Source of the DNA: Candidatus Omnitrophota bacterium
Lineage (GTDB): Bacteria > Omnitrophota > Gorgyraeia > JACQQV01
DNA length: 64,000 nucleotides
Assembly (NCBI GenBank): GCA_016206785.1
Contig: JACQQV010000031.1
Span: 35,860-99,859, forward strand
Reading direction: 5' to 3'
The notes under the pieces were generated by a model. It was not told the DNA's origin. It did no database searches and worked only from the letters and a program-made list of their open reading frames with translations. Positions within the stretch are counted from its first letter, which is position 1. The number at the start of each line of letters is the position of its first letter. This document shows, one piece after another, positions 1-50,153 of the stretch. The position numbers and the translations under genes were made by a program.

Positions 1-1212
<1,212 letters not shown>

Positions 1213-1240
1213 TGGTACCTCCGTTAAAAGTTTACTATAA

Positions 1241-1274
1241 CATAAAAAAGCGCGCCGGTCAATCAAGCGCGCTT
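1241..1274 (-). terminator. Rho-independent terminator downstream of the giant gene
   Basis: Inverted repeat AAGCGCGC(1248-1255)/GCGCGCTT(1267-1274) with an 11-nt loop. On the minus-strand transcript it is followed by CUUUUUUAUG (reverse complement of 1241-1250). Confidence 0.5.
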
Positions 1275-1300: not shown

Positions 1301-4300
1301 TTACAGCCCTTTAAGCACCATGGTGGCGATCCGCTTCGCCTCAGCAAGTTCGTTTTGCACCTTTTCGCTTGTCATCAGTTTCCCGGCCTTACCGAATCCC
1401 TGCGTCACCTCGACAAGGAGGAGCTTTGTGGTTGTGTCAAGATCTTCAAGCCGGTCTTCCCTAAGGAGAGACATTTGCGAGGCAAGACTTGTCCCCAGAT
1501 ACACCTCTTTAAGGAAATCGACCGGTGTCTTCAGGGGGACCGTAAAAACCTTCTGCTCATTGATAGAGGAAATAAGGGCTTTGCGGTGGGGCCCAAATGC
1601 GAGAGAAACAGGAGAGAGAAGTCCATGCTTTTCGAGCCCGAACGCTTCTTGATCCGCCGGCGTCAAAAGAAAGACCGCGGATGGCTTTTCAGGGAGTTGA
1701 TCCAAACGGGTCTTGAACCGACCCGCCATCTTGTCGACCAAGGGAGCCCCATAGGCATAGCTCAATTCATCAAAGAGTTTTCTTCCTTCTGGCGTCGAAA
1801 ATTCTGGAGCGGCAAAGAATAAAAACCCTTCTGTCTGTTTTAAAAGGTAGGAAAGGACGTCTGGATTCGATGTTAAGTCCTCATCCAGGAGTCTCGATGC
1901 GCTTAACAACAGGATTGTGGATTGACTGATGTGATCCATCCGGCTTCCAATTTCAAGATGGAGGATGTCTTCCTCAACAGGCATCGGTATCCGTTTCGGA
2001 TCTAATTTTTTATTCTGACGAGAAAAGAGCTCCCGTACCAGGATGGTATAGAGCGTGCGGATCGAACCTCGATGCGCTTCGTCGGTTTTATTGAGTTCAT
2101 CAAGGAGGGGCTCCTCCTCAAACATCTTCGATAGGGTAATTGCTTTGGGACCCACGCTCTTCATAAGCGATGTGACCGCCTCCGCCAGCGAGACCTCTTT
2201 CTTCCCGCCGTCTTGGGCGTAAGATTGGACACGTTCCGCGAATCTGTCATTTTCTGCAAAAATCCAGTCGGGAAGTGGGAATCCTTTATCGACGAATTCC
2301 TCTTTGAGATATTCGGTTCGGCGCTCCGCCTCGGCGCCATAGAAGGCAGCGTCGTATCCGAGGACGGTATCGAGATTCGCACGGATGAGGGCGACGTTCG
2401 CCTTGTCCTCCGCCGTCATCTTCTCCGGTAAAAGATCGTCAAGAATCCGCTCAATTGCGGCACGGGTCGGCATATAACCGAGGGATGTTTCAACCGCCTC
2501 TCCCTTCCCCGTTGTATTCCCCTTGATCCGCTCGGTCGCCCAGATGACCGCAATCGTATTCCATGAATAACCGGGCCATAGGAAATTTCCATCGGCTCCC
2601 TTCTGGAACCAGTTCACATGGAAAAAGAGGGGTTTGTTCTCACCGAGTTTCTCGATCACGGCACGCTGATTGTCCAGATATTCCTTTTCACTGAGTCCAA
2701 AGAAAGGCTTCATCGCCACAGGGTCCGGCTCAACGGCACCCACCTTCACATCACTTGCGGCAGCGGTTGCCTCCCGGATGAGCATAAACTGATCGTAAAG
2801 ACCTGAGTTCAGATCCCGCGACTGATAAATGAGCGGGACCCCTTTGGACATCTTCCCCCCGACGAAGAAGGCATGAACGGTGAGGCCTTTCGGATCGTTC
2901 CATTTTGGCGAACGGTTCGGAACGTTCGTAATCCGGGTGGTAAACCGCGAGTTTGGATGGGCCCATTGGTCCACGTTCGGATGCGTCGCGGGACTTGCCG
3001 GCTCCCGTCTCCAGTTGATCCATCCCTCACCCGTCGGAAGTTCTTTTGTAAGTTTCCTCCACCACACTTCACCCGTAAAAACATTGTAGGCGACATTTGT
3101 AAAGACGGTTCCCGTATTGTCTCCGATCGCCTCCATGGCCACCGCATTGGAACGCTCATTGGTGTCGGGTGCTACCCCAAAAAGCCCACGTTCCGGGTTA
3201 ATGGCATGAAGTCTATGATCCTCTTCATCGACCCACGACCAGGTAATATCATCTCCAAAAAATTCTGTCCCATAGAGATGCTGAAGGGGTGCAGGAACTT
3301 GAAGCATCGCAAAATTGGTTTTGCCTGAAGCGCTCGGTGCCGCATCAAGGATTCCGAAAAGTCCACCGGTTGTTTTGTCACGGAATCCGAGCATCGCCAT
3401 ATGTTCGACAAGCCATCCCTGCTTGGCAGCAAGGTACCCCGCAATACGAAGCGAGACATGTTTTTTGCCGAGGATTGCATTCCCTCCGTACGCCGACCCA
3501 AAAGACCAGACTTCACCCTGATCGACCACATCGACAAAATAGCGATCATCATCTGTCAGTTTTTCAAGATCCCCTGTGGCCTGGACTCCCTCAATAAACT
3601 TTCCACCCTTTTCTTCCAAGGCAACCAACGCCTCCTCGCCCACGATGACCTCACCGACCGCTGCCATAATATCTTGATTGGTGAAAACGTAAGGATTGTC
3701 GGTTAACATCATCATCACTTGAGAAACAGGGGACTTTCTTAGTCCCATGAGGACCGGTACGACATACATCGTCTTCCCGGCATAAGAGCCCTTGACCTTC
3801 GCCTTCACTTCTGGAAGAAATTTCTCCGTGAGTCGATGATTGTTATACCGCCCTTTATCCGCAGGATTACTGGAGAGAACAAAGGTTCTCTTCTCCATCC
3901 GGGCCACATCGTTCACATCGGAGAAGGAAACCGAGGTACCGTTTTTCCGCCGGATGAAGTGCCCCGGACGTACGACCTCTTGGACGGCCTCCGTGAAGGA
4001 GAGGCCGTCGCCCGTAAGCCGCCGGATTTCTACCGCAACTTCTTCTTGCGTCCGCGCCACGCCAGCGATCGCTTCCTGAATGTCGTCCTGATTCAAAATA
4101 ACTTTGATGCTACCGGCGCCGACAAAGTCTACCATCTCCGAAACCCACCCCCGCGCCGCTTCGTTCTGGATTTTGGCTAACTGGATCGCCTGATTCTCTC
4201 TAAATTCTTTCCCACCCCCATCCGCGGCCCTCTTTGGAACATAAACGAGAAAAGCCATGTCCATGATGTTGGTCCCGGTGGGGCCTGTGATGATATGAAT

Positions 4301-7300
4301 TCCCATCTCTTTTGCAAAAGCCCCAGACTTAAAACGGCGAAGAAACTCTTCGGGATCAAGCCCCTTCTTTTGAGCCAAATCTACCGTCTCACTCGTTACA
4401 ACCGCCCCAGCACCCCCCCACCGACCATCCTTCCCATCGGTCGCCCCTGCCAAGAAGGTTGCCTTTCCGAGGTTCCTTTTCTCAAGTTGTAAGGAAGAAA
4501 GGAGATTCGCTACCGTTAAAGCAAGGTGACTATTTCTCCCACCCTCTCCTGCTCCAGGTGGTACCTCCACCTCTGGTTCCCCACCCCAAAGGAGCACGAC
4601 AGGCTCTTTTCCAAGATAGGGGGAGAGGGTTGATACCATTCGATCCGCTTCTTTTTCTACAGATTGGGTAAGGGGCTCGTCAATAATCACTGTCTTGAGT
4701 CCAAAGGAACGAGCCACCTCCGCCGCCCTCTCAAGACCGGGTCTATTTCCAAAGAGGAGCGCTGACTGAAAACGTTTTTGGTCGAGGAAGGTGTCACTAG
4801 GTCGAACCACTTTTTGTGTTTGTTCTTTGATGTTTTGTTCAATATCATCGCGTACCGTAAGAGGAACTTTGTCCCACAGTTTACGTTTTACGAGAATATC
4901 CTTCGCGTCTTGAAAAGTGCTTCTATCCCCAACGGTGTACCCGGAAGCGATATCTTCGAGTCGATCATACGGAACGTCAGACCCAAGGAGATTCACAAAA
5001 TATTTTGCATTTCCACCGAGTTTTAGAATCTCGGTCCGCTGATCGACATGCTTACGGATAATATTTTTGTCATGAATATTCATTCCTGAATCTTCAAGGG
5101 TTTGGTAGAGTTCCCGTAAATCCTTCAATGGAATTTCAGGAACGGGGAGAGCACCGATCGCGCTCCCTCCTCCCGAAATAAGGGTGATCACCATATCCTG
5201 AGGGGTCGCTTTGGCGAGGAGTTTCAATATTGCTTCAGTCCCCTCGGCCCCCTCCAAGCCTGGGGTTGGATGTTGACCGGCATACAGTTGAATGACACCG
5301 ATCTTGCCACGATATTTTTCCTTCTGTTCATGCCCATCGACACTCAACACACCCGCCGTGATCCGGTTCCCAAAAATTTTATGAAGCGCCTCGGCCATCC
5401 CGGCAACCACCTTGCCATATCCAACGACGTAAATATGTTTGACCTCGTTCAAATCATATTCACGTCTTTGGATCGTGAGTTTCTTTGAAAGAGCATCATA
5501 CACGACATTTCTTCTCACCGCATCCGAAGCATTGGCGCTTTGGATCGCCTCAAAGAACATCCGGTTTGCCAAAACCTCTTCAACCGGAACTCCAGGAACG
5601 GGATTCTTGGGAAAGGAGCCATCCAGAATTGCACTTAGGTTTTCAAACGCGATCTCCTGCATCCTGCGGCGGACAGGAATCACCGCGCTTCCTGTATGCC
5701 CTGTGATCTTTACATTGGAAAGTTCAAAAAGACCCTGCTTCGAACTTCCATTTGTATTGCTCTCATCAGTGAGCACATCGAAATGGCCCTGAGCCTCCGG
5801 GTGCTTTTTCAAATGAGCGATCATATCTTCTTCGTTTATAACGCCACCTCTTGAAGTATTGAGGTGGATCGCTTTAGGTTTGGTTTTCGCGAGGAATTCT
5901 CGATTCACCCAATGTTTGGTTTCTGAATTCAGATCAAAGAGGTAAGTGAAGATATCGGGTTCTTTAGCAAGGGTATCTTTATCGACCACTTGAATCCCCT
6001 GTCGAGAGGCGCGCGCGATATTATCGGAATTCTTTTCAAAAGTGAGCATCTTCATTCCCAATGCAGCCGCCCGTGAGGCAACCGCCTGACCGATCCGGCC
6101 GAATCCTGCGATCCCGAGCGTCTGTCCGGCAAGAGTCTTTTCAAACAATGCCCCTTCACGGCCCGATTTTACCCAAAGATCTTCAGGGTCAACAATGGTA
6201 TGGTGAACGCCATCAAGAGGAGTTGTTCCTGGAAGACGAATGACGTAATCTGCTTTCTCACGAAGTTCGTGGAGTTTTGGCACGATGGGAAAGTAGGTTA
6301 AACGAAGTTTCGATTCCTCTTCAGGAGTGAGCCGTTGATCCTCAGGGGCGAAGTAGACAATAGAAGCGATGCCGTGGGCGTTCGCAAATTCTGCAAGACG
6401 CTTACCCACCTCATTCATCCCCACAATCCCAAGAGAAGTTTTGACGCCGACCTCCGGATCGGCTCCCAATTGATCATGAAGAATGGTCGCCTCAGGGCCA
6501 ACACCACATCCACAATACTTCCCATCCCTGACAAACTGGTACATGTCACCCAAACGGAGGGACTGACGCAACAGTTCTCCCCAAAGGATCTCCGCCACCG
6601 CTTGCGGATGTTGGGGAATTGCTGCAAGAAGAACCTCTTCCAATTTCTTCTTTCCAATTTTTTCCTGAGAAATGGAATCGGTAAGGAGGTAGTTTGCGTT
6701 GAGCGCCTTCCCGATATTGAGCTCGGCCATCGCAATCGTTAAGGGGCTCCCGGTAGGCGTCTGTGCATTGGTCACAAAGATCCCCCGCTTCCGCGCCTCT
6801 TCGCGGTCCACATTGTTATACCCGATGCTGAATTGAAGAATCCCTTTTAAATGGGGGGAGGCGTCCATAACCTCTTTGTCAAAACTCAAATTGGTAAATC
6901 CGGTGATGTAGTCATAATCTCCCTTCCGGACAATTTCGAGAAATTGCTTTTGATCGAGGCGTTGATAGTAATCTTCTCCGGCTTTGAAAATTTCAGACCC
7001 GGTCCTCAGGACGTCGACATTAACGTCTCCTCTTTGTCTGTAGAGCTGGCGGACATTCTCATCCAAGGGCTCTATGACCAATACATTTGCTTTTGGATTT
7101 TCAACCCTCGTTCTTCGGACCTCGACTCCCGGCACGACCTCAACGATGGATTCCTCGGTAGGCTCCCGTACAACTTCTCTCCCTCCATCGCGAGAAGCTT
7201 CATAGGTCCCCTGTTCAAAGGAATGGCCTCCTGCACTCGGGTAGAAGCGGGCCATCCGGAATCGGTTCGAACCTTCTTCAATCGGATCAAACCGGTGGAT

Positions 7301-10300
7301 CCCCGTCTCTACAAGAGGTTCTGCGTAAATAGCGACTTCAAAGAGGATTTCATCACCGTCATTGATCACTTGATGAACCGGATTGATGACTCGCGTAATT
7401 TTTGAAATACTTCCCTTCCGAATGGATTCTTCCGAGACCTTTTCCAGAGAGACAATGTTTCCTGCTGTTTGTGAAACCATACGAAAACGCCTCTCCTTCC
7501 CACGCCCTTCACCGACGATGCAGAAGACACAAGCATTTCCACCATGATTATGAATAGGATTCCCTTGACCGGGAAGATACGCGATAATGCTTAATTCAAA
7601 ACGCTTTTGGGGATCGAGGTGAATCACAACGCGGGGGTAATCGGTAGGACCTTTGAGGCCTTGGACCTTTCGCTTGGCAATGATATCGAGGATGCCGATC
7701 TCTTTTAAGAAATCTGGGGAGCGCGGAAGGAGTTCGTCGGTTAAAATCCTTGCCAGGGTATCTGCAAGACTCTTCTGTTCTTTATCCGATAACTTCTGAC
7801 CTTTCTTTAAAGAATCTACCTCAGCCGTCACACGATCCACAACCGCCTGCGTCACAGCGCCATATTTTGTCCCCCCATCCGTTCCAGATTCATACTTGGC
7901 CGATTTTTCCGCCGCCTGAGAGGCCTTCCACTCTTCCACCGTCGGAAGTGGGAAGAAGGCATCGAAAAGCGGTTTCACAATTCGCCCATCCTGAATCGCC
8001 TCGAGAATTTTTTCTTTCTCGGGGCCAGGATCTTTATCGGCATCATTGAATCCAACTTGAAGATCCCGACGGATGAATTCATAAAGCGGTCGTGTGTTCC
8101 CAAGGAGGTGGCCTCCCCCTTGTTGCAAAGCTCTTTCTTTAGCCTGAGGGAGTAACAGATCAAGACGCTTCGCAAGAAGTTCCATAAACACCTTATAATA
8201 TCCAGCGACAGCCTTGGCGTCATTGACAAGGTTGACCTCCACAGACCCAACCGCTTTCGGATCGCTCCGAAGAATATCGTCAATTTCGCCCGCCAGCGGA
8301 TCAAAAAGCGGCTTATATCTTTCAGAAGAAGTAAATGCATAATAATAAGGAGGGATCGTTTTCGCTTTCTTGACCAAGTGCGCGGTCATGAGAGGTGCGA
8401 TGTCCTTCCAATTCGTTACGACACTTGGCAGTGTCTCCTCAACGGTTTTTGCAATCGCTTCCTCTGTGGCGTTCTGGTAGATCCGTTCAATATTCCGGAG
8501 GTCAACCGCCTGAGCCGTGGAATAGAGATGATTTACAAGCATGAGTTGAAGAACTCCAACTGCCTTTTGCGTATACCGCGCAGAAATCAGGGCCAGCGAA
8601 TTGACGTCTTGATTCCCCAGCTCTGCATTTTTGACGTGAGTGGTCACTGGATTCGCCAGATACTCCAGCTCCGATTGGTAACTCGCCATTCCGATTTCTG
8701 AACCCTTATCCCCAAAGTCGAGGTTCGGGTCAGATCCTGCGAGATTTTTAAGGAGGCCGTTGTTGTAGGCGTCGCTGTGAAGTTCGGTATATTGGGCAAA
8801 AAGAATCTGGCCGATCGCGGAGAGGGCAAGACGTGTATTCTCCATGGCGACACCGAGGGGTGTTCCCTGGAAATTCCCTCCGTGAAGCACGCGGTCTCCT
8901 TCAACATCAATAATCGGATTGTCGGTCACAGAGTTCATTTCGGTCGTCACCGCTTCGGTTGCCGCCAAAACGACCTCGAGTTGCGGCCCAATGGCTTGGG
9001 GAGCGGTCCGAATTCCGTAACGGTCTTGCCGCATCCTCCCCCTTTCAATCTTTTCTTTCCCGTCCAGCTCATCCCGTGAGAGCCGACTTCCCTTAAGAAG
9101 ATGCAGAAGGTTTTCACCCACTTCAATCTGTCCTAAGTGTGGTTTGATGGCTTGAATGACCGGATCGTAACTTTGATTCGTGCCGATAAGCGTTTCGACG
9201 CTCAAAGCGGTTGTCGCCTGGGCAAGCAGAGCGAGAATGTTGGCATCATACAACACGTGGGTTGCCAAGGCATTGGCGACAGAGGTGCCATTGACAAAAG
9301 CAAGGCCTTCTTTAGGCCCAAGTGCAATCGGTTCAATGCCGGTGATCTGAAGTGCTTCTCTGGCTGAAATTTCTTTTCCTTGATAGCGTGCCTTTGCCGT
9401 CTCTTTCCCCATGAGCACCGCAAGCATGTGAGAGAGCGGTGAAAGGTCGCCGCTCGCCGTGATCGAGCCTTTATTGGGTACAACAGGGGTAACCCCCTTG
9501 TTAAGGAGTGCCACAAGATTTTCCAAAACAAGCCAACGGAGTCCCGAATATCCTTTAATATTGGAATTGGCGCGGATGAGCATGGCACCACGCACCTCAT
9601 CCTCCGGAAGCGTCGGACCAAAGCTCGAATTCAAGAAACGGATCAGTTCTGCCTGCAGTCTTTGCACTTCATTTGTCTGGGCGCCCGCGCTTCCGCCATA
9701 TCCTCTGTTGACGCCATAAATATCCCTTCCTTCGGCAATCGCTTTCGCAAGCCATTCCACAGAAGCATCGACCTTTGCTCGGACCTTTAGAGAATCCGTC
9801 AAAGAAACCGGTACACCATGCTGAGCCACTGCGGCCACATGGGGAATAGTAAGGTCTTCCCCGGTGACCACAACTTTATCGGTACGTTTCAATCCTTCAG
9901 CAAGGGCAAGTACAAGATCCCGATGCTTCGTCTGTTTGACAATATTTCTGAGTCCTTTCGTGTCTCGATAAGTTTTCTCCACGAGTTGCGCTTTTTCTCT
10001 TTCAACTTGTTTTTCTCTTTCCTTCCGGGTATACAATTCTTCAATCTGTTTTGCGAATCGCTTTTCAATCTGTGGACGAATGAGAGAGCCTTTTGGTGAA
10101 AGCGGAAGCGGTTCTTCGCCTGGCGCCATAATCACAATATTTTCCCGACGGACCCTTGAATAATCAAGGAAGTATTGATTAACATCCTCGAAGAGCCCCC
10201 AGATCGCTTCCTCAATGTCCATCCACTGTTTTCCTTTGAAAGCCGCATAGTTCGGTTGGACAATGGCGATATTGTAGGGTCTCAAATGCCCCACCAAGGC

Positions 10301-13300
10301 AGCCTTTTGAATCAAGGGGCTGTCTTCAAGCGCCATTTCAATTGGAAGCGGATTTGTCTTTTCGCCTGTCGGATGTGCAAAAATTTCGTCGTTCCGACCC
10401 ACATAGACATATCCCCCCTCAACCTCTTGGAAAAGATCTCCCGTATGGAAACGTTCAGGTTCTTTAAAGACATCTTTTGTCGCCTCTTCATTTTTAAGAT
10501 AGCCGGCGGTCACGGTTGGACTATTGTCAAGGACGAGCTCTTTCCCTTCAAGACCCGGGGTAGAAACAAAGTCGGCGTTCACCCCAGGGATCACCCGAAG
10601 AGTCCGCCAATCGCGCTTTTTCGGGTCCCCCAAGAAGATCGCGCCTCCCACATCGGTCATCCCCTCGCCTTGGATGACATTTACCCCCTTCCCTTGGAAA
10701 TATTTTCCAGTCGCTTCTGAAAGAACAACGCCACCTGACATGATAAATTTAAGGCCCCCCAATGTATCAAGTATCGTCGGATCTTTCTCTGCCATTGCCT
10801 GGAATCCTTCGAGCATCCACGGAACGGTGTAGAAAACATTCGCCTTGGTTTCTCTTAAGGAGGCGAGGAGTTGATCGGGCGTCGGCGGTCCCGGTTTTAA
10901 CCGTGGGAAGGCATATTTGGCACCGACGTACAGATTGCCCAAAAACTCAAAAGGGAGCCCCATGACATGAAAGAACGGAAGCCAACCGAGGGTCATATCT
11001 TCGTCGGTAAAATCACCCTCCCAGGCGAGCCGCGAGGCCTCCCGGTTATAGAGGAGATTCTGATGGGTCAGCGGAACTCCTTTTGGCAGTTTGGTGGTTC
11101 CTGAGGTATAAAGGATCAGTGCAACGTCCTCCGGTTTTATATCAACAGGCGGGATTTCGACAGGGGCCTCACCCTCTTGCCAAGTCGCTAAAGAAATTTC
11201 ACCCTCCTGAAGTTTTTCAGGAGGAAGTGCATCCAGTACGAAGATTTTTTTGATGTTTAGATTTTTAGATTTAAGGTCACGGGCGGCCTGAAGGAAAGGA
11301 CCTGCGGAGACAATAAGGGAAGTCGCATCAGAATTGGACACCATATGTTCAAGCACGGGAGGTGGCGCACGAAAGCTCATTGAGACAACCGCCCCTCCCA
11401 ATCCCCAAACCCCCATCGCGGTTTCCACAAATTCAGGACGATTCGGTGAAAGGAACGCGATCCGATCTCCCGGCCGGACCCCTTCGGTATAAAGCGCTTT
11501 CTTCAGCCGTGCCACCTCTTTGTCAACTTGATTGAAGGAGACCTCTTGGTATCCCTGCGTCGATGGAACGACGAGAAATCCCCGATCGCCATATCTCTCC
11601 ACCTGCATCGCCCAAAGATCCGGAATCACTCCCGTCTTCAGGGTCAGTTCTCCAAGGCGAAGGTTCCGGTAGGCACCGTCTTTGGCGAACTTACCCGCAT
11701 GTTTCTTGATGATTTCCTGATGGAGCGCCGGTTCAATATTTTTCCCCGAAATCATCAAAACGACGGTCCTGGCGTTTTCAAAAAGATCGCGATGTGCAAG
11801 AAGTGCTGCCACAGAAAGGACCCCCGCTCCTTCCGCCACAATCCCTTTTCCTTGATAGTGCTCCTGGTGAAGGAGTGCGATGGCGCGTTGGATATCCTCT
11901 TCCGAAACTGACACGACACTTCCAACTTTTTCTTGAAAGATCTTAAAGGGGATGACGCCTGGGCGTTTGACCTTCGCGCCGTCCGCAAGGGTCTCCGGGG
12001 AATCAATTTCAACGATCTTTCCGCTTCTCAGAGAACGAAGCATGCTATCTGATCCGGATGCCTGAACCCCGATTGTTTCTGTCCGCGGAGAGAGGGCACG
12101 GGTCACCGTCGCAATTCCGGCCAGATACCCTCCGGTTCCTACAGGCGCAACGATAACGTCGGGAGTCACTCTGTCTTTTTCGAGAATCTCCAGCGCAACA
12201 GTCCCTTGTCCGGCGATGACCCAAGGTTCAACGGGCGAGATGAAAATATTGCCGCGCCGGAGCGCCTCGTTATACCAGGCTTTCCGGAGGACATCGTCAA
12301 ATTTACCAGTGACCGTTTCCAACCGTCCTCCCAGTCTCTCGATCGCCTGACGCTTCGTAGGAACGATATCCTTCGGAACAAAAATCAGATTGTCGACTCC
12401 AAAGCGGTTCGCAGCAAGGACGACCCCTTGGGCATGATTTCCCTGGGAAGGGGCGATCACGGTGATACCCTTCCGATCAGCGAGCGGAACATTTTCAAGG
12501 ACATGAGCCACTTTCGCAAGTGCCCCGCGCCACTTGTATGAACCGATGGAGGACTCGCTGTCCAGCTTCAGGTAGATGCGTCGGTCGGTTCCTTTTCCAA
12601 AGAAATATTCGCTCAGAACCGGCGAATAAATGAGGGGCGCTTCTTCCAAGTAAGGGCCCATGAGACGATAAACTTCCCGAACCCGATCGATATCCACGTA
12701 TCCGTAGCGGGGCTCAAGACGTGTCCACCGATCCTCTGAAACCGCATGGGGGGAATCGGGAAGGGTGGCAACTTCTTTCAAGGTTACGAAGACTTTCGCA
12801 AGCCGCAGATCGATAAAGTAAGGATCGAGGGTTTCAAGATAGGTCAGGTCGATCGTCTTTTCCGGCACCACGCCCCCCTCCTGCGTCAGAAATCTCACGA
12901 TCTGGATTATTTCTTCGTAAAGGGCTTCCTCATATTGGGTCGGGTCTGACACCTGACGGGACTTAAGGTAAGCAAGTTTATCGATCGGCTCCAAGAGTCT
13001 CAAGGAACCGTTGGGGGTATCCTTGCTCCGACTCATTGTGCCGATGATACGGTCCTGAGCCACCTGACCATCCTGCACGATTTGGAAAACGACCTTCCCG
13101 TCTCCTCGCATCTGGATGGTAAAGGTGACAAATTCATAAGGCCTATTCCCCACGTTGGATTCGAGGAGTCCTGCCACTTCCTGAATCGTTTTTCCTCCAC
13201 CGTCGCGGGCCATGGCAGTGCTGACTAAAAACATTCTTCCTCTCCCTGTCACATCCCCCGAAGGACCGATTGAGACTTCATTAGCCCAACTGCTTCTTCC

Positions 13301-16300
13301 TGTAAAAATATTTCCTTTCCGATCGGTAAGAATACGTAGTCTCCCGTTGACAATCTCAACGTCTGTAATCTTCGGGCCTTTCTTTCCAGAAGGAGGTCGT
13401 GCAAATCGAAGAACAACCACTTCATCTTCTGGGGTCACCACCATGGCCAAAGCGGGATCTAATGCAGAGGTCTTTCTGGATAATCCTCTTATCGGAAAAC
13501 GAATGGGATTCTGCCAATAACTATCTTTCACAATCGCGACCCACTCTTCTCCTGCAAAGATCTTTGTCCCCCCTGTGGCAGGCCTCACTCCTTCTTCCCC
13601 TTGGACTCTGCTTTCATAATAAATAAAAGGCCAACTCCATTTTCGATGCTCCATTTCAATAGAAGCACCTCTTTGAGAAAGGGTCCCAGGATCTGTGTCA
13701 AATGTGGAGTGCGTCAATATCAAGGGAAAACTCTCTGGAGAAGAGATGCTGTCTTGAATTTTTTCTTCAAGGAGGTCATGAAGATGACTGTGTGGAAGGA
13801 CCTGCTGCCCAAATGCGTAGGAAGGGACGTCGACACGGAGTCGATCTCTAAATTGTTCAAGATTTAACCCTAGATTAAAGTGGTATCTGACACCCCCTCC
13901 AATATCTTCTGCAAGGAGAATCCCCTCTTGGACCAAAGGTCTAAGTGCTCCTAAGATCTCTCCTTCGCTCCTGATTTGTTGAAAGACCAAGGCCTCGCGC
14001 AGCCCACCATCCTTCGCAAACTGCGGGGGGGCTTTTTCCACTGCCACAGGCTTCCCGGCCTTTGCAAATGCCGTCGTGATCATGGCGACGACACGTTTCA
14101 GATTTCTGGCGATATCCTCTTCGCTGATCGGGACATTGGGATTGTTCAAATCGGCGGCCAGGTAATTTTGCGCAAGCATCCTGTCATGGATGGAAACGAA
14201 ATCGACCTGATCCGCATAGGAAGTTGCAAAAAGGTATTGGTCGGGATTGTCCGCGCGGACGCCAAGTTTGAATCCCTTGTGACTCCGCCTTAAATCGGTC
14301 TCCTCCAAAAGATCATGGGCGATTTTTAAATGAGTCACGTCACGGACATCGGTGAGTTGTATCAAAATGTTGTCAATGCCACCTCTCCGCGCCTCCTTCA
14401 CCGCCTCAAACTCCCAGCGGAGAAGAGTCCGGTATTCATCACTCGCAACATACCGGTAAAATCCTCCGAAACCGAGGGGGGTGTTTTCTTCCTTCTTGTC
14501 AAAAACAGTTCCATACCGAAGGGAAAGATATCCTTCGCTATCCAAATCGCTGGTCTGATACACAAGCTGCTCGCTCTTTTTCGACGAGACCGCTTTGGCA
14601 AAGAACGCAATGAGTTGGGTGCGGTAGTAATCCTCCGCTTTGATGAACCCCTTCTGGCCGATAAGCGTACGAAGGGTGGTCTGAATCTTCCGGATACCTT
14701 CCAAGTCCCTATTCAGTCTTGTGAGGAGTGCCGCCTTTTCATTGGCTATCTGAAGAAGTTCAATCCTTTTTTGCTCCTGCCCATCACCCAACGACTTGAG
14801 ATTGCGTTCGGCAGCAATTCGATCTTCCCTGGTTGTTTCAATTTGATGCAAGATTTCTTGTTCGATCTGATGGAGTTTCCCGCTGTCATAATAAAGGAAA
14901 GCGAGGGGGTGAATTTTCAGGATGTCACGGTAGAAATCGGAAGCCCGTATCGTCTGGATCTCAAGCCGCTCCGCGGCCACTTCTCTTTCGGGGATTTCGA
15001 TGGCGTCAGGCGTGGTCACCTCTCCACGGGTCAAAGGAAGTCTCCCTTCATAAATTTTTCCGGTCTTAAAATCAGCAGTAACAATTTGTCCTTCCTTCAA
15101 GTCTCCTCGGATACCGACGAGGACCGGTTTCCCTTGCGCTTCAGCTTCTCGGAACCAGGGACGGTCAAGGTCTTGGGCCTCAAAGAAAAATGCCCCCGCT
15201 TGATTGACAACACCGTTGGGAACGGCGATCCTTTCGGAACCCTTTCGAAATAGAACAAAATCGCCGAGTTGGATCCGACGGAGATCTTCCGGATCTTTGA
15301 CCACGACCATGTGACGGTCCCCCGCACCCTGTGTGGCAAGCGTTTTCCCAAAAGCGACCTCATGCGCTTCACGAAGGGATGCTTCTGAAATGGAAGAAAG
15401 ATTTAATTCCGCCTCGGAAATCAGTTTGACGGCTGCAAGGAACCCACGGACGTCTGTTCCGGTTGAATCAAGGAGTACGGCAATCTCGCGGGCCGCCTGA
15501 AGGTTATACCCCGGTTCGCTCGGATTGGTGAGTTTGATGATCGCCTGACCGCAGAGACCGCAGGTAAACTTCACGTTGCGCCTCTGGCGTGCTTCACGTA
15601 CCGCATACACCACATGACGGATGCTATTGACGATAGCAGGATGCGATTCTTGGAAAAGGGCTTTCACCAAAGGTTCTTCACGCCCCGCGCGGCGTGTTGT
15701 TTGTGTTAAGTCATTGGTTCCGAACGAGAAAAAAACATCCTTTCCGGTTTCCTTCGCGTATTGTGCCAAAAGATCCGCAAATTCATCCGCCTGAATCACG
15801 TTTGAAGGGAGCTCAACCATCATGCCGACGGTATGAAGCGGCATTTTGACTTCCTGGAAGCGTTTAAGACCTTTCCGGAGTTCTTCCGGCGTCCGGACAA
15901 AGGCGAAGAAGGCCCCAATATTGGTATAACCGGCCTCGTAGACCCGCTTGAGCGCTTCTAATTCCAAACCGAGAACTTCACGGTTCTCTTCCTTTAATAG
16001 CCAACCTGTTCCACGGTCTCCCAACATCGTTGCGCGCTCACGGGAACCGAAGACACCGCCCCCTGTAATCTGGAGAAGCTCGTTCTGTTTGAAATCGTTG
16101 AATCGGTAGAGAACTTTTTGATGAATCCCATTTGCCGCCGCCATAGAGGCGAGACCTTCATAGAATTTTCGGACGTAATATTCACGGGCACTGGGATAAC
16201 CGGCCACACGCCTCTCGATTTGCGCAACCAACTGGGGATGGGCACGGAGTTTTTCAACGTCTCCGCGCTCATCCATAGTCAGGGAGGTGTTGGAATCTTT

Positions 16301-19300
16301 TTCGAGTCCCTTCAGATTGTCGTAGGCGAGGATCGCCCTCGGATGAATTCCGACGCCGACAAGAATAAATTCTGCCCGGGCAAGACTGATCCCGTAAAAA
16401 GAAGGGTAAAGGGCAAGGTTGGAAACTTCCTGCATCGCCCGGGGATTTGCTACAATCAGTCCCGGTTTTGTGAAATGGGTCTCCGGAAGTTGGTCCACAT
16501 CGATCTCAACCTGCTCGGTTTCGATGGGGAGTGCTCCTTTGTAAATCCTCCCCGTATTGGCATCGACCGTGACCCAGTCATCTTCGGTAAAAAGATAGTC
16601 CCTCGCCTCCCTGTAGTGCGAAGGGGCTTCCTGCCGAAGTCTTTCCAAATCTCCATTAATTCCGGTGATCGTCGCCAGATTCAACTCGCGGCTCACAATT
16701 GCGGCATGAGAGGTGTCTCCTCCCTCTTCAGTAATAAAGCCGCGGACCCCCTCGGTTTTCATGAGCGGTTCCTGTCCGGGGGTCGTAAAGTCTGTCACAA
16801 TGATAGTATCCTCCCCAGACTTTCGGAAGTCAGCGACTTTGTTGCGGATACGGTCCTCTTCCCGGGCATAGTCTCCCTTGAAACTCCTCGCCTCGCGATC
16901 CAGAACGATGACCCGTCCGGTAAACGCATTCCGCCCCTGAACGCCTTTGACCAAAAGTTTCCCTGCCCCTTCCGCCTCCTCCGCCACCTCCTCCGGAACA
17001 AAAGTTCTTTTAATGGAAACATTCCGCGCCCCGATGTCGGAAGGGGTGGTAACGGCTCGCGACTGCACAAGACCCACGGCGGAGCGTTCCATCGCCCCTT
17101 CCATATCGCGGATCCCTCCGTAAAAATCGGTAGCCGCTTTGAGTTGTCGGGTAATTTTGATGATCTCTTCGTCGGTTGCAGCGAATTGATTTCTTTTTTC
17201 AGGAGGGACATGGGTCCAAATGAGCCGCTGTTTCGGATCTTCGAGAAGCGCATGGATCGCGTGGGTCAGTTGCAAAAAGTTTTCTCGCGGAAGGACAAGA
17301 TGTTTTGAAACGGCTGCCGGTAGATGAAGTCCCTCTGCAATCGCCTTCTCGGCCCTCTCTTCAATCTCCTCGTGGATGCGCACAATGGTCCGAAGAAGGG
17401 GAGCGATCTGATTCCCGTTATAAATCTTTCCAAGGAGTTCAGGGGAAAGGGCGACCCCCCTCGGCTGGAACTCTTGCGCGATATAACGGCGGACCGCTTC
17501 CATGAGTTGTGCAAGCTCCTCTTGGGTGATTCCCGCCTTCTCAAGAATCTCCTCCAGATACACCATTTGAGTCCGCTTCGCCCCAAGCTCTGCTTCAATG
17601 ATATTGACATGTTCCCGACCCTCTGCATCCGTGAAGAGATGAACTTTGTAGGCGTCTGGAACCACCATTCCCCCCACAATCGCTTCTCCCAACCCGTAAG
17701 AAGTGGTAATCCGGAAAATCCGTCCTTCGGTGAGTCTTTCTTCGGGGGTATCCTGAAAGCTCCTCGCCGTGAAACCGGTGGTCCGATCGAGGCTGAAAGC
17801 CACAAGGGAGACGTCGCTTCGAATCATTCTTTGAATGGGAACTGCAAGAGAAAGGCGCGTTGGATCAATGTAAGGCTTTCCCGCTTCTTCCAAAAGTTTC
17901 AAGAAACGGTCCGCAATCCTTGGGTGCCCGGTCCGGATTTCCACCAGGGCGTTCCGCATCTTTGCATGGGGAACATACGTTCCCTTTTCAAGATTTTCGC
18001 CGATTTCCCGTACCTGTTGCCGCGGCGTCTCCTTCAATGCCGAAACAAGCTGAGAAAGATCCTGCGGGGTTTCAATGGCGCTGATGAATGCAAGGAAGAT
18101 TTGCGTATCCCGGTAGCTGATGGCGTTCGGTCTAAAAAGACTTGCCAAGACATCCCGATATCGCTCGAGGACAAGGGAGTACCCCCTCACATTCAAAAAG
18201 GTCTCCTGTTGCCCGGCACTGGAACCGGAGGAGATCTCCACTTTCAACCCCGAGCGGAGCGGCTTGGAAGGATCAATCTCCACATCTTCGACGGTGCCGG
18301 AGCTTCGTACGGCGACAGGGAGATTCATATCGGGATAACTGTTTTCCCGGCTGAGGACCATATAATTTCCGACAACCTCCTGTTCAAGATCTTCCGGCAT
18401 CACCGCCTGCTCAATCGCCTTTTGAATCGCCTCTGAAGCATCCTTGAGGGCATGAGGGTCGGTGACATCTAAATCGGAAAGGAGCCGACCGATGGTATCC
18501 CTGATTTCAGGATTTGCATCGAGGAAACGCTGGTATCCTGCTGCCGTGACAATGAATCCTGGTGGGACAGGAACCCCATGACCAAACATTTCCCCAAGAT
18601 TCGCACCCTTCCCGCCCACAATCGCCATATCATGACGCCCTACCTCTTCAAACCACACCGTCAGTCTTTGAGAAATATCTTCAGCCCTTTTGCCTTCGCC
18701 ATCTCTGGCCGCGAGACCCCATTGTTCTCCTCGGGGATGGTTTAGAATGCGCACTTGCGATAAAGTCCTCGGCAGCCTTCCGAAAGCCACCTCATTGACA
18801 AGTTGAAATTCGGCCTTCGATTCTCTATGGTCGATTTCAAACTCTATCACCCAAGAGTCTGCATCCGCTCTTCCCATTTCCCGTAATGCGATGCCCCGAT
18901 GATGACCTTCCGCGATGAAGAAACGGGCCCGTTTGGGTTCCGGCTTAATCACAATAAGCGCTTCACCTTCGCCCTGTTTAATTTCTTTTTTACGTACCTC
19001 AATTTCTTCTCGAAAAGCGGTTGGGGCGGCGGGCGCCAACACACCTAACGAGAGTGTACGACGATAAACCTTCATGGGTACCCCATGAATTCTTTCAAAA
19101 TCTCTTGCTAACCGGTATGCCAAATCTTTGGAGTAATCCGCAACGGGAATTCGGTAAACGCTTCCTCCCGGACGGATTCCCAGTATGATGCGGCGGTCGC
19201 CAATATACAAAGAGACCGCATCATCACCCTTAAAGTATGTGGGTTCATGAATAAATAGTGCGGAGAGCGAGGGATCCTTCGCCCGCGCCTTTTGGAGTGC

Positions 19301-19558
19301 ACGGAGGAGACCCCATCGGCTGGCACCTTTCTTCTTCGCGCCCGTGAGAATTGTTGAAACTTTTCTTAGGAGGGGGCCCGAAAGCTCGTTAAAGAGTTGT
19401 TGCTCGCCTCCGTCCTTTGCGCCGATGACGCTGTGGGTGCGAAGATGTGAAGAAGAAGTGAAGATATCCTGCAAGGCATGTGCAGGCAGGGTATTGGTAC
19501 AAAGGAATGCTTGAAGAATGATCCAACTCGAAACTTTAATCCAAGTTTTAGACTTCAT
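1301..19558 (-). CDS. Giant (6085 aa) signal-peptide-bearing multi-enzyme-domain fusion protein
   Basis: A single stop-free frame spans 18,258 nt. The N-terminus [28 protein letters not shown] looks like a signal peptide. I checked the motif positions against the DNA by back-translation: GGDTSHAAI at 16697-16723, SYKWRGA at 12521-12541 and KGSITASGD at 9446-9472. The sub-domains are listed below as separate features. Confidence 0.85.
   Translation of the reverse strand: [6085 protein letters not shown]
1304..2458 (-). other. C-terminal region (~385 aa) of the giant protein with no recognisable family
   Basis: I recognised no known motifs in this region. It is mixed charged and hydrophobic, and it ends ...[11 protein letters not shown]. 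Confidence 0.3.
2459..4171 (-). other. GTP-dependent phosphoenolpyruvate carboxykinase-like domain (aa ~5130-5700), paralogous to pckG at 55807..57579
   Basis: [38 protein letters not shown] aligns with [37 protein letters not shown] in pckG. The P-loop is [13 protein letters not shown], with Ser in place of the pckG Cys. Other matching segments are [32 protein letters not shown] and [19 protein letters not shown]. Confidence 0.8.
4259..5521 (-). other. Glycerate 2-kinase (DUF4147 + MOFRL family) domain (aa ~4680-5100)
   Basis: [54 protein letters not shown] and [10 protein letters not shown] match the conserved motifs of GckA/TtuD-type glycerate kinases. Confidence 0.65.
5609..6991 (-). other. 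D-isomer-specific 2-hydroxyacid dehydrogenase (glycerate dehydrogenase/hydroxypyruvate reductase-like) domain with a ~170-aa insertion (aa ~4190-4650)
   Basis: The catalytic domain is [42 protein letters not shown]. The NAD-binding motif is [33 protein letters not shown] and ITGHTGSA carry the catalytic His. Confidence 0.7.
7289..7636 (-). other. Cysteine-dioxygenase-like cupin domain (aa ~3975-4090)
   Basis: [25 protein letters not shown] parallels the CDO type-I motif IHDHxxSHCFxKxLxGxLxExxF. Confidence 0.45.
8279..9856 (-). other. Aromatic amino-acid ammonia-lyase (HAL/PAL family) domain with an intact MIO-forming Ala-Ser-Gly triad (aa ~3235-3760)
   Basis: [15 protein letters not shown] carries ASG at aa 3368-3370. 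[26 protein letters not shown] and GIRTAPQ are typical of histidine/phenylalanine ammonia-lyases. Confidence 0.75.
10019..11521 (-). other. Adenylate-forming (AMP-binding, acyl-CoA-synthetase-like) domain (aa ~2680-3180)
   Basis: Core motifs are present: [14 protein letters not shown] (A3), [24 protein letters not shown] (A7/A8) and [15 protein letters not shown] (A10 PxGK). No carrier-protein domain follows. Confidence 0.7.
11609..12631 (-). other. PLP-dependent (fold type II) threonine/serine dehydratase-like domain (aa ~2310-2650)
   Basis: SxKxRGA with the PLP-binding Lys in [15 protein letters not shown]. It also has [11 protein letters not shown], the glycine loop [12 protein letters not shown], and [11 protein letters not shown]...[11 protein letters not shown] at the C-terminal side. 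Confidence 0.7.
14009..15361 (-). other. Degenerate second PEP-utilizer half (mobile-domain-like plus TIM-barrel-like) lacking the catalytic His and with TNDLTQ replaced (aa ~1400-1850)
   Basis: [12 protein letters not shown]...GDFVLF...[15 protein letters not shown]...GKPVLVGI...[10 protein letters not shown] parallels the first swivel domain, but GGDTSHAAI is replaced by [30 protein letters not shown] parallels [10 protein letters not shown]. A coiled-coil-like segment at aa 1550-1640 lies between them. Confidence 0.45.
15524..18661 (-). other. Complete pyruvate-phosphate-dikinase/PEP-synthase-like module (aa ~300-1345): ATP-grasp N-domain, phospho-His swivel domain, PEP-binding TIM barrel
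   Basis: [14 protein letters not shown] matches the PPDK_N nucleotide-binding motif. [21 protein letters not shown] matches the PEP-utilizer mobile domain with the catalytic His. [10 protein letters not shown] plus FTCGLCGQ matches the PEP-utilizer TIM-barrel motif with the catalytic Cys region. The domain order is the same as in PPDK/PpsA. Confidence 0.75.
18839..19201 (-). other. ParB/sulfiredoxin-like nuclease-fold motif region (aa ~120-240)
   Basis: [17 protein letters not shown] resembles the ParB-like nuclease domain signature DGHHRlxAxxxxG. The assignment is tentative. Confidence 0.25.
19475..19558 (-). other. Predicted signal peptide of the giant protein (aa 1-28)
   Basis: Positively charged N-terminus (MKSK), then a hydrophobic core WIILQAFLC, then an AHA-like cleavage motif. 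Confidence 0.5.
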
Positions 19559-49480: not shown

Positions 49481-49495
49481 TGGTCACACTTCGCC

Positions 49496-49633
49496 ATGAA
49501 GAAACGACTGACGCGGAAATCCAACTTACGGAGAAAGAGAACTCATGGATTCCGCCGTCGCATGCGGAAACGGGGCGGCCGCCGCCTCTTTGCCCGACGG
49601 CGCCGGAAGGGCCGCCGGGTTCTTTCGCGGTGA
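49496..49633 (+). CDS. rpmH: 50S ribosomal protein L34
   Basis: MKKRLTRKSNLRRKRTHGFRRRMRKRGGRRLFARRRRKGRRVLSR. The start is the internal ATG of track ORF 49385..49633. Confidence 0.85.
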   Translation: MKKRLTRKSNLRRKRTHGFRRRMRKRGGRRLFARRRRKGRRVLSR

Positions 49634-50135: not shown

Positions 50136-50153
50136 ACGCGCTAAGGAGCTCTT

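Follow-up and report, generated by a model that had tools for sequence, protein, structure and literature searches.

A serine-type GTP-PEPCK module, distinct from the resident pckG, in a giant multi-enzyme protein of an Omnitrophota bacterium

The window analysed here, the whole stretch of 64,000 nucleotides from a Candidatus Omnitrophota bacterium, contains two sequences related to GTP-PEPCK. One is the canonical housekeeping gene pckG (55807..57579, + strand), located directly downstream of ndk, whose product of 590 aa has an intact GGRR motif and 10 Cys. The other is a full PEPCK_N+PEPCK_GTP module carried by a giant ORF (1301..19558, - strand) that encodes a protein of 6,085 aa. The P-loop of this module holds a serine where that of pckG holds a cysteine. 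Is the module an old duplicate of pckG that has adapted to an oxidising compartment, as the original prediction proposed, or a cassette with a history of its own?

The giant protein is a succession of unrelated units. From its N-terminus, these are a predicted signal peptide, a ParB-like N-domain, a PPDK/PEP-utiliser unit, an unknown unit, a PLP dehydratase, an acyl-AMP ligase, an aromatic ammonia-lyase, a cupin, a 2-hydroxyacid dehydrogenase, a glycerate kinase (DUF4147+MOFRL), the PEPCK unit and a C-domain. Pfam assigns 17 families to it at E <= 1e-15, none being dominant by copy number, and the signatures read in other modules are intact (ASG of the MIO triad, TSHAAI, SYKWRG, TSGTTKLPKG). 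The PPDK/PEP-utiliser unit includes a second PEP-binding domain; this PEP-utilizers_C domain was the sole gain when the N-domain, the C-domain and the inter-module stretches were searched against Pfam at E <= 1. The N-domain weakly resembles small ParB-like proteins. Scanning GTDB genomes with it led to a single relative (L001), and scanning metagenome contigs to none. The conserved C-domain, which terminates in VLKGL, found no match in a word-indexed search. Upstream, separated from the giant ORF by 34 nt, lies a co-oriented gene (19593..24008, - strand; probable start M43) encoding a divergent GlmS-like GATase+SIS module behind a predicted signal peptide and a leader of the same type as those of the giant protein.

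The complete PEPCK unit spans 2204..4222 (- strand; aa 5113-5785), between two DGG junctions. It contains both Pfam domains in the right order, PEPCK_N (PF17297; 3428..3997, - strand; aa 5188-5377; 138.3 bits) and the P-loop domain PEPCK_GTP (PF00821; 2306..3415, - strand; aa 5382-5751; 296.9 bits), each far above its gathering cutoff of 23.8 bits. The span initially attributed to the module, 2459..4171 (aa 5130-5700), lies inside it but stops about 80 aa short of its C-terminal end. On the - strand, PEPCK_N carries the R-loop DVARMEKRT (DVARM at 3896..3910) and YGGNAILGKK (LGKK at 3461..3472). PEPCK_GTP carries EHM (3398..3406), the P-loop or kinase-1a motif APSASGKTN (3314..3340; Ser5411 at 3326..3328, and an Ala at the usual first Phe), GDDITW (3239..3256), HPNSRF (2942..2959), GGKM replacing GGRR (2849..2860), NWFQ (2603..2614) and FLWPGY (2567..2584). 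Furthermore, an AF2 model of the unit (pLDDT 86.3, pTM 0.89) retrieves with Foldseek only GTP-PEPCKs among its top 50 PDB matches, including Polaromonas, Mtb and rat structures (best E 5e-57, TM 0.79/0.88).

Aligned by BLASTP, the module and pckG give one collinear alignment with 215 identities over 567 positions (38%, E 6e-112), a similarity that, judged by this score, is far beyond chance. The pair of PEPCKs predicted in the window is thus real, and all the motifs quoted for it are found in both sequences: YGGNAILGKK in the module vs YGGNALLGKK in pckG, GDDITW vs GDDIAW, and FHVNWFQKGADGNFLWPGY vs FHVNWFRTGEDGKFLWPGY. In the same way, the P-loop difference was correctly read, with APSASGKTN in the module and FPSQCGKTN in pckG (56563..56589, + strand). 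The divergence, estimated at roughly half of the positions, is substantial but somewhat higher than stated, reaching 62% overall. The two sequences also differ in their standing among known proteins: pckG is 90% identical to MBI4436731.1, from a Candidatus Omnitrophota MAG, and scores 901.5 bits with the NCBIfam model NF003253, whereas the best match of the module anywhere is only 42-46% identical and its NF003253 score is 470.5 bits.

In a neighbour-joining tree of 61 sequences, chosen because they resemble one of the two queries (the module and pckG), the module and the homologues with a Ser P-loop are separated from pckG and the homologues with a Cys P-loop in 100/100 bootstraps. Inside the Ser-type side, the module stands on a long branch and forms a clade with the homologues P0001-3 in 2/100 bootstraps. 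Residue states at Lys244, His264, Cys288, Arg435 and Arg436 define three types: type A (KHCRR; 121 sequences, pckG among them), type B (KHSRL; 4 sequences) and type C (IQSR[TVCA]; 116 sequences), the module itself being KHSKM. Since 116 of the 120 Ser-type matches lack two Mn ligands (type C, with actinobacterial proteins carrying Ile244 and Gln264) and only four (type B) resemble the module, treating all 120 as one functional family was rejected. The module scores best with the type B profile (554 bits), ahead of type C (484) and of canonical type A (410).

The bootstrap split and the type B preference both separate the module from pckG, which bears out the claim that it is old and not a recent copy; a recent duplication of pckG is rejected by the same tree and profile scores. 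A recent horizontal import is rejected as well, because the GC content (0.529) and GC3 (0.578) of the module equal the genome values. Among 5.8 billion clustered proteins, no other giant protein with such a PEPCK was found, the best matches being 43-44% identical and all of about 610 aa, and JGI metagenome contigs provided no such giant protein either (best locus, 42% identity). On the tree and the profiles, the two lineages appear to have parted long before the present genome existed, and the module is not a duplicate of pckG.

The homologues also shed light on the serine. Ser5411 occupies the position of the reactive Cys (rat C288, Mtb C273), and the 120 nearest homologues of the module all have PSASGKT. 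All of them are stand-alone proteins of about 610 aa; the leader is absent from the five that were inspected, and the one whose locus was looked up, P0002, has a housekeeping context (nadC-pck-uvrB). Thermoplasma PCKs are tabulated with SASGKTN (PMC2684135). As the serine is invariant in these 120 stand-alone proteins and present in Thermoplasma, it predates the fusion. It is thus best read, from this distribution, as a lineage marker inherited with the cassette, not as a new adaptation to export. It is also compatible with catalysis: mutagenesis of C273 in Mtb Pck indicated that the Cys is not essential (PMC5279734), and a C273S crystal structure, 5i67, is among those matched with Foldseek.

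These results bear directly on the explanation initially put forward, namely that the module derives from an old in-genome duplication of pckG and that its P-loop Cys became Ser as an adaptation to an oxidising extracytoplasmic compartment. The Cys-to-Ser difference does exist, the N-terminus of the carrier resembles a signal peptide, its cysteines are strongly depleted, and canonical GTP-PEPCKs are redox-sensitive via their cysteines (PMC4370629, PMC5279734). However, an adaptive origin in this protein is hardly compatible with a serine found in 120/120 nearest stand-alone homologues and in Thermoplasma, with the 100/100 placement of the module on the Ser-type side, apart from pckG, or with stand-alone type B relatives that are already Cys-free. 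This explanation thus appears highly improbable.

Lys244, His264 and Asp311 (rat/human numbering) are the Mn ligands of GTP-PEPCK. All three positions are retained in the module, as K5366, H5386 and D5437. Compared with the published list of GTP-PEPCK active-site residues in this numbering (PMC4631375), the module keeps 22 of 25 positions, the exceptions being C288S, R435K and R436M. The substrate positions R5220 (Arg87), Y5357 (Tyr235), N5536 (Asn403) and R5538 (Arg405) are retained, as are the GKT of the P-loop and the DD pair. The guanine pocket comprises W5650, F5651, F5659, Y5664 and N5667 (Mtb W501, F502, F510, F515 and N518), the Tyr at the third position of the pocket being common to the module, pckG and PnPEPCK.

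Other positions have changed. The replacement of GGRR by GGKM removes both arginines, including the one contacting the ribose (Mtb R420, rat R436), for which a hydrogen bond is described in Mtb (PMC4370629); the second of these arginines is absent from all Ser-type homologues too (GGR[TVLCA]). The pair of arginines at the lid hinge is lost (RRDP to EPDP). In PnPEPCK, R473 fastens the omega-loop to the R-loop (PMC12529880). Phe284 of the P-loop is replaced by Ala and eight residues are inserted before the R-loop. The ligands, on which the original prediction made the function depend, are thus mostly preserved: those of the metal and most of those of GTP remain in place, whereas the Arg that binds the ribose is gone.

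The extent of change is also seen in the universal columns, i.e., those at least 95% conserved both in the Ser-type set and in the Cys-type set. The module deviates in 30 of 135, the other sequences in 0.9 on average and 20 at most. The catalytic columns are less affected (1/19) than the others (29/116; Fisher one-sided P 0.043). The NF003253 score of the module falls below the equivalog cutoff (504 bits), above which stand-alone homologues are found: P0001 (type B) with 677 bits, P0024 (type C) with 644 and P0044 (type B) with 608.

Could the module be a degenerating or repurposed fold, serving as a pseudoenzyme, as a ligand-binding or scaffolding unit, or for another reaction or phosphoryl donor, instead of a working GTP-PEPCK? 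The altered universal columns, the score below the cutoff, the GGKM and EP replacements, the Ala of the P-loop and the insertion would all suit this explanation. So would the large sister group, type C, whose lack of two Mn ligands indicates that the PEPCK fold does get repurposed. Nevertheless, the three Mn ligands, R87, R405, Y235, GKT, the DD pair and the entire guanine pocket are kept, the catalytic columns are preferentially conserved and confidence in the predicted fold is high. Decay is also at odds with an 18-kb ORF devoid of stop codons and with the intact signatures of the other modules. Repurposing or degeneration therefore seems unlikely; from its residues, the module looks enzymatic but unusual and fast-evolving.

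It is probable that the module is a complete type B GTP-PEPCK cassette, not a duplicate of pckG, whose serine was inherited and which is housed in a multi-enzyme Omnitrophota protein bearing a Sec-type leader. It would come from a rare lineage in which Lys244, His264 and Asp311 are kept, Ser stands for Cys and the second GGRR Arg is lost, and would have been captured, or retained, in the present lineage only. The unit is predicted to bind Mn2+, oxaloacetate/PEP and a guanine nucleotide and to catalyse OAA + GTP <-> PEP + GDP + CO2, its nucleotide affinity and lid dynamics being probably altered. It shares the protein with other units working around PEP and pyruvate: PPDK, Ser/Thr dehydratase, hydroxyacid dehydrogenase and glycerate kinase. 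Export of the carrier via Sec would explain the loss of cysteines throughout the family, save a few paired or catalytic ones. The homology, the placement in a lineage, the residue states, the fold, the cysteine counts, the junction motif and the synteny are results of the analysis, and the activity, the export and the site of action are inferred from them.

This loss is pronounced. The giant protein contains 7 Cys in 6,085 residues (0.12%) vs 128 in 11,746 (1.09%) for 29 neighbouring genes, an approximately 9-fold depletion (binomial P 1.5e-20). It is uniform across all eleven segments of the giant protein, including the family-specific N- and C-domains. Similar values are found in the product of the upstream gene, a paralogue (19593..24008; 2 Cys, 0.14%), and in an orthologue, P0241 (0.15%). 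The surviving cysteines of the giant protein form C-x-x-C or C-x-C pairs; among them are the Cys of CG(E/Q) in the PEP-utiliser and that of the cupin, both kept in P0241. The PEPCK unit has no Cys. When cysteines were compared with those of stand-alone homologues, which was done for PEPCK and roughly for GlmS, P0001-3 had none either. The suspected avoidance of cysteine therefore holds for the giant protein as a whole, but a Cys-free PEPCK is common to these stand-alone relatives. The depletion thus belongs to the carrier protein and its relatives, and is consistent with export.

The predicted signal peptide itself, MKSKTWIKVSSWIILQAFLCTNTLPAHA (19475..19558, - strand), was recognised by eye from its n/h/c layout; it ends in AHA, with LQ following the predicted cleavage site. 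Its n-region holds three positive charges (K2, K4 and K8), its h-region is short, with a mean Kyte-Doolittle hydropathy of 0.94, and its site is of the A-x-A type, a pattern kept in the orthologue and in the paralogue. Predicted cleavage sites are likewise kept, between LPAYA and LS in P0241 and between VAWA and SR in the paralogue. A conserved leader, SSHLRT...KDGG..QL..EL, comes after the predicted signal peptide. No transmembrane helix was detected beyond the N-terminus, no internal 19-residue window exceeding a mean Kyte-Doolittle value of 1.53, and internal anchors were rejected on this hydropathy scan. Together, the Sec-type leader, even if identified by eye, the absence of transmembrane helices and the low cysteine content fit export.

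Export nevertheless sits awkwardly with the enzymatic content of the protein, because GTP-, ATP-, NAD- and CoA-dependent enzymes have no obvious substrates outside the cytoplasm; the two would be compatible mainly if a second cell were the destination. Alternatively, the giant protein may not be exported at all. The N-terminal stretch would then be an uncleaved anchor or irrelevant, the protein would work next to pckG as a cytoplasmic PEP/pyruvate metabolon tethered to the membrane, and the cysteine depletion would have another cause, e.g., a Cys-poor origin of the cassettes. Consistent with this, all the modules require cytoplasmic cofactors, the relatives of the PEPCK cassette are Cys-poor without being exported, and most long multi-enzyme proteins of Omnitrophota are predicted to be membrane-associated, many of them facing the cytoplasm (10.64898/2026.06.07.730766). 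However, the positive n-region and the A-x-A site, kept in orthologue and paralogue, predict an N-in, C-out topology with cleavage, and the short, moderately hydrophobic h-region is typical of a signal peptide, not of an anchor. Moreover, the depletion extends evenly over the eleven segments and is common to the neighbouring leader-bearing protein. Retention in the cytoplasm is thus considered rather unlikely.

The limits between units provide further information. Unit boundaries of the giant protein are marked by [KR]-D-G-G junctions. Around the PEPCK unit, the junction motif reads RAA-DGG-GKE between glycerate kinase and PEPCK (DGG at 4214..4222, - strand; aa 5113-5115) and YAQ-DGG-KKE between PEPCK and the C-domain (DGG at 2204..2212, - strand; aa 5783-5785). 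The broader motif [KRQAT]DG[GA] occurs nine times in the giant protein vs 0 in 11,775 aa of neighbouring proteins, none of the seven DGG falls within a Pfam envelope (P about 0.001), and the motif is kept at the junctions of P0241. A scan of the giant protein and of 31 other ORFs of the window for a cognate peptidase revealed no peptidase domain. P0241 (2,596 aa; JBDRBD010000219.1, Candidatus Omnitrophota) shares with the giant protein the N- and C-domains and a downstream Iso_dh gene (80% identity). It is devoid of the PEPCK, PLP, ligase, lyase, dehydrogenase and kinase units. As this syntenic Omnitrophota orthologue lacks PEPCK, the PEPCK unit is, as far as this comparison indicates, a variable cassette.

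A more far-reaching proposal is that both the giant protein and the neighbouring one are polyproteins exported via Sec, cleaved at [KR]-D-G-G, with exchangeable cassettes and perhaps delivered to a partner cell. Complete central-carbon enzymes would lie between the conserved leader/N-domain and the VLKGL C-domain, with processing sites between them, and cleavage would free cysteine-free, oxidation-proof PEP/pyruvate enzymes, PEPCK included. Their transfer to a host or prey cell could be envisaged for an Omnitrophota bacterium that is presumably host-dependent, and the cassette content might be exchangeable among lineages, as in modular effector toxins. If true, the freed enzymes would redirect the carbon flux of the partner cell. 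This proposal remains speculative and, taken as a whole, quite improbable.

Concerning PEPCK, the outcome is mostly corrective: the Cys-to-Ser change marks a lineage, and the module belongs, as a divergent member, to a Ser-type branch that has attracted little notice. Its context is more interesting, with boundaries marked by D-G-G, an approximately 9-fold cysteine depletion and a cassette content unlike that of the syntenic orthologue. Compact (6 kAA) and readable throughout, the giant protein exemplifies the recently catalogued multi-enzyme long proteins of Omnitrophota. It offers testable handles on cleavage and on where cofactor-dependent enzymes act, namely candidate cleavage sites, a small PEPCK unit tractable as a recombinant protein and the resident pckG as an internal control.

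Among known systems, canonical GTP-PEPCKs (rat/human cPEPCK, M. tuberculosis Pck, pckG; EC 4.1.1.32) have the same two-domain architecture and fold as the module, and share with it the R-loop Arg, YGGN...GKK, EHM, GKTN, GDD, HPNSRF and the NWF/FLWPGY/N guanine pocket. The module differs from them by its 35-38% identity, its 0 Cys vs about 10, and its embedding in a protein of 6,085 aa. Type B PEPCKs (P0001-P0003, P0044) are closer, providing its best profile (554 bits) and its best pairwise matches (42-46%); like the module, they have K244, H264 and PSASGKTN, lack the second GGRR Arg and are Cys-free. Their motif pattern is that of Thermoplasma PCKs (PMC2684135). Unlike the module, they are free-standing proteins of 614-627 aa (P0001-3 without leader) that still have the P-loop Phe, the first Arg of GGR and one of the hinge arginines, with few changes in universal columns.

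The organisation of the carrier recalls that of MARTX-type toxins. In these toxins, conserved N- and C-terminal regions flank variable enzymatic cassettes separated by short conserved sites, and cassette content varies between close relatives. By analogy, the giant protein would resemble them in its conserved ends, variable enzyme cassettes and short inter-cassette sites. Unlike them, it has neither an autoprocessing protease domain nor repeat regions, and it carries central-metabolism enzymes, not toxins; a MARTX-like delivery into another cell is, for this protein, purely hypothetical.

The closest parallels come from the long multi-enzyme proteins and Archaeovorins described in Omnitrophota (10.64898/2026.06.07.730766; 10.1101/2023.11.21.568195). 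As in the giant protein, which comes from the same phylum, many unrelated metabolic Pfams are tiled behind an N-terminal signal peptide, a predicted one in the giant protein; PPDK domains, also present here, have been reported and post-translational cleavage is suspected. The giant protein, with its 6,085 aa, is well under the 10,000-aa threshold of the catalogue (10.64898/2026.06.07.730766) and, unlike these long proteins, has no transmembrane helices, repeats, C39/S8 peptidase, SecA or adhesion domains. It also contains a PEPCK, which was not found in the text of either preprint. Finally, whereas West-Roberts et al. call the cleavage points of long proteins unknown, the giant protein has a recurring junction motif.

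The phosphoenolpyruvate carboxykinase (PEPCK) part of the giant protein, hereafter the module, and pckG, an ordinary GTP-PEPCK gene (55807..57579, + strand; 590 aa) located directly after ndk, are collinear over 567 residues with 38% identity (BLASTP, E 6e-112), and every shared motif block quoted in the original prediction was found. The P-loop difference described there is also real, as the module carries APSASGKTN (nt 3314..3340) and pckG FPSQCGKTN (nt 56563..56589). The segment initially delimited, aa 5130-5700 of the giant protein, falls short of the PEPCK unit, which reaches aa 5785.

Among 5.8 billion clustered proteins, the module matches only stand-alone proteins of 591-647 aa, with 43-44% identity at best; in all 120 matches listed, PSASGKT is present and the second Arg of GGRR is absent. 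The matches of pckG in the same set reach 90% identity. All of them have PS[AQM]CGKT and almost all have GGRR where this motif can be located, and the cluster of the best one (P0121) includes MBI4436731.1, from a Candidatus Omnitrophota MAG. An NJ tree (61 sequences, 583 columns, Kimura distances) separates the module and proteins with a P-loop Ser (Ser-type) from pckG and those with a Cys (Cys-type) in 100/100 bootstraps, the module being a long branch whose exact place within the Ser-type side is not settled by the tree. Column analysis of 242 sequences, based on the residues at Lys244, His264, Cys288, Arg435 and Arg436 (rat/human numbering), distinguishes three classes: the canonical type A (K-H-C-R-R; 121 sequences including pckG), type B (K-H-S-R-L; P0001-3 and P0044) and type C (I-Q-S-R-[TVCA]; 116 sequences, two of the three Mn ligands missing). 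The module displays K-H-S-K-M, and its profile-HMM scores (554 bits for type B, 484 for type C and 410 for type A) agree with a placement near type B. The type B genes are free-standing, P0002 lying between nadC and uvrB, and no leader sequence was found in the three type B proteins read (P0001-3). The bootstrap split and the profile scores rule out that the module is a diverged copy of pckG. As initially proposed, the pair is old and not a recent copy: judged from these sequences, they are paralogues or xenologues of ancient origin, and the module does not derive from the resident pckG. Since the GC and GC3 of the module equal those of the genome, any transfer was old.

It should be added that, in 116 of the 120 nearest homologues (among P0004-P0120), Lys244 is replaced by Ile, His264 by Gln and Cys288 by Ser. 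Many of them are annotated “phosphoenolpyruvate carboxykinase (GTP)”, the named members belong to Actinomycetota and Dehalococcoidia, and P0024, the one type C protein scanned, passes NF003253. With one Mn ligand of three present, type C proteins are probably not canonical PEPCKs.

The original prediction was that the Cys-to-Ser change could reflect an adaptation to an oxidising, extracytoplasmic environment. It is not supported as an adaptation of the giant protein, as the Ser is invariant in the near relatives of the module (120/120 of the matches listed). Furthermore, SASGKTN was tabulated for Thermoplasma PCKs in 2007 (PMC2684135). In M. tuberculosis Pck, mutagenesis shows that the corresponding Cys, C273, is dispensable (PMC5279734), and a C273S structure, found in the Foldseek match list, is deposited as 5i67. 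Together, these data indicate that the serine of the module is inherited, the change being a lineage character older than the fusion and compatible with activity.

In favour of a functional enzyme, the module keeps 22 of the 25 listed active-site positions (R87, Y235, G236, G237, N238, K243, K244, H264, S286, G289, K290, T291, N292, D310, D311, N403, R405, W516, F517, F525, Y530 and N533; roles from PMC4370629, PMC4631375 and general knowledge of the rat enzyme). One of the 19 catalytic universal columns is altered versus 29 of the 116 other universal columns (one-sided P 0.043). Its AF2 model (pLDDT 86.3, pTM 0.89) has low confidence in the omega-loop only, and the top 50 Foldseek matches are all GTP-PEPCK structures (best TM 0.79/0.88). 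Other features count against activity. The module differs at 30 of the 135 columns with at least 95% conservation in the Ser-type and the Cys-type sets alike (mean of 0.9 for the other sequences) and scores 470.5 bits with NF003253, under the 504-bit cutoff. GGKM replaces the GGRR of canonical PEPCKs, whose second Arg contacts the ribose in M. tuberculosis Pck (PMC4370629). The P-loop Phe is replaced by Ala and the hinge pair RR by EP; R473 of PnPEPCK, counterpart of the hinge Arg, latches the lid (PMC12529880). More likely than not, the module still functions as a PEPCK, with a changed way of handling nucleotides. On sequence grounds, it is a divergent serine-type GTP-PEPCK cassette, belonging to a known enzyme family and held by a recently described kind of carrier.

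This carrier (6,085 aa; 1301..19558, - strand) includes ten enzyme regions according to Pfam. These are, in order, PPDK_N, a PEP-utiliser mobile domain and two PEP-binding domains, then a PLP-dependent dehydratase, an AMP-binding ligase, an aromatic ammonia-lyase, a cupin, a D-2-hydroxyacid dehydrogenase, DUF4147 plus MOFRL (glycerate kinase family) and finally PEPCK_N plus PEPCK_GTP (aa 5188-5751). Its N-terminus, MKSKTWIKVSSWIILQAFLCTNTLPAHA|LQ, shows signal-peptide features, as does that of the upstream gene (19593..24008, - strand), MKIVAVLTVQLFLFSNTFSTVAWA|SR; in both proteins, SHLRT...DG[GN]..QL..EL follows the leader. The giant protein has no internal TM segments. The N-domain located behind its leader (aa 50-312; 18623..19411, - strand) has no Pfam match and a weak likeness to small ParB/Srx-like proteins (AEGHHR motif); outside P0241, the Omnitrophota orthologue, its best match among 1.84 billion representatives has E 2.9e-10. 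A family-specific C-terminal domain of ~300 aa, also without Pfam match, is found at 1304..2212 (- strand) in the window and at 3..782 and 7696..8583 in L001, the P0241 locus. Its extreme C-terminus, VLKGL before the stop, is invariant in three proteins, and the upstream window protein ends in NRGL. This domain could be a sorting or recognition signal.

Cys represents 7 of the 6,085 aa of the giant protein (0.12%), 2 of 1,471 in the upstream leader-bearing protein and 4 of 2,596 in P0241, versus 1.09% in the other 29 window genes pooled (P 1.5e-20 for the giant protein, and 1.5e-5). In its mature form, the giant protein has six Cys, arranged as three C-x(1-2)-C pairs; among them are a cupin Cys and the CG(Q/E) Cys of the PEP-utiliser, each of which is conserved in the orthologue. 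This scarcity supports the idea of cysteine avoidance for the whole protein, but not for the PEPCK unit, whose stand-alone type B relatives are already Cys-free (mean Cys of 1.5 in Ser-type homologues versus 9.9 in type A). The original prediction is confirmed as an observation and supported in part as an interpretation.

The giant protein contains nine copies of the motif [KRQAT]-D-G-[GA] and its neighbours (11,775 aa) none; the seven DGG are all located outside the Pfam envelopes (P ~0.001). These junction sites and a DGE (aa 286) mark off whole enzymes, and the PEPCK unit extends exactly from DGG5113 to DGG5783. Boundary sites are found at aa 49, 286, 1850, 2119, 2627, 3894, 4124, 5113 and 5783 of the giant protein and at aa 50, 287, 2056, 2090 and 2333 of P0241. 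Almost all boundaries of enzyme units carry the motif (once D-G-E), frequently followed by Lys or Arg at most three residues downstream, and it is conserved at equivalent junctions in the orthologue. The sites are candidates for proteolytic processing; no protease was found in the giant protein or the window ORFs scanned. The giant protein would be exported, processed at the DGG junctions and active outside the cytoplasm of its producer.

Among 1.84 billion representative proteins, the N-terminal 312 aa have a single relative, P0241 (2,596 aa, 44% identical; JBDRBD010000219.1, a Candidatus Omnitrophota MAG). P0241 shares with the giant protein the leader, the N-domain, the PPDK unit, the cupin, the C-domain ending in VLKGL and the junction motif at equivalent places, and it is syntenic, the downstream Iso_dh gene being 80% identical; the PEPCK, PLP, ligase, lyase, dehydrogenase and kinase units are all missing. 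As P0241 lacks PEPCK despite this synteny and shared framework, PEPCK is one exchangeable cassette of a fast-evolving modular family. This C-domain (41% identical) is also found at the end of a truncated gene 5' of P0241. In both genomes, an isocitrate/isopropylmalate dehydrogenase gene lies 3' of the giant gene (133..1266, - strand, in the window; 8748..9824 in L001). Between these conserved flanks, the giant proteins are 29-44% identical and differ 2.3-fold in length, so that the locus is a fast-evolving hot spot.

The window holds a second paralogue pair (19593..24008 and 39373..41208, both - strand). The upstream 1,471-aa protein includes a GATase+SIS module that resembles GlmS but is very divergent; it is collinear with canonical glmS in two blocks (31% and 23% identity). 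The two sole Cys of this protein (CRLC) sit at the GlmS N-terminal nucleophile Cys in a weak alignment segment (E 5.0); to function, an Ntn Cys in such an internal position would have to be exposed by proteolysis.

The window, of uniform GC (~51%), corresponds to the region around the replication origin of a bacterial chromosome, with dnaA, dnaN, gyrB, gyrA, yidC, mnmG, parA, parB, ndk, pckG and a pyrimidine-biosynthesis cluster. At 47829..51725, dnaA and dnaN diverge from yidC and mnmG, and near 50-52 kb the GC skew switches sign, which indicates that the window spans the origin; the giant gene lies ~30 kb from it. The ndk gene (nucleoside diphosphate kinase) precedes pckG with a 3-nt gap (55294..57579 for the pair, + strand), a sensible pairing in view of GTP supply.

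Giant proteins of Omnitrophota that carry signal peptides, C39/S8 peptidases, and glycolytic-enzyme and PPDK domains were described by West-Roberts et al., who suspected cleavage and stated that the cleavage points were unknown (10.1101/2023.11.21.568195). A 2026 preprint defined a “multi-enzyme metabolic cluster” class among proteins of at least 10 kAA and reported TM helices or a signal peptide in 94% of the long proteins (10.64898/2026.06.07.730766). Text searches of both found no mention of PEPCK. The giant protein can be regarded as a small representative of this class, one that has a predicted signal peptide and is devoid of TM helices.
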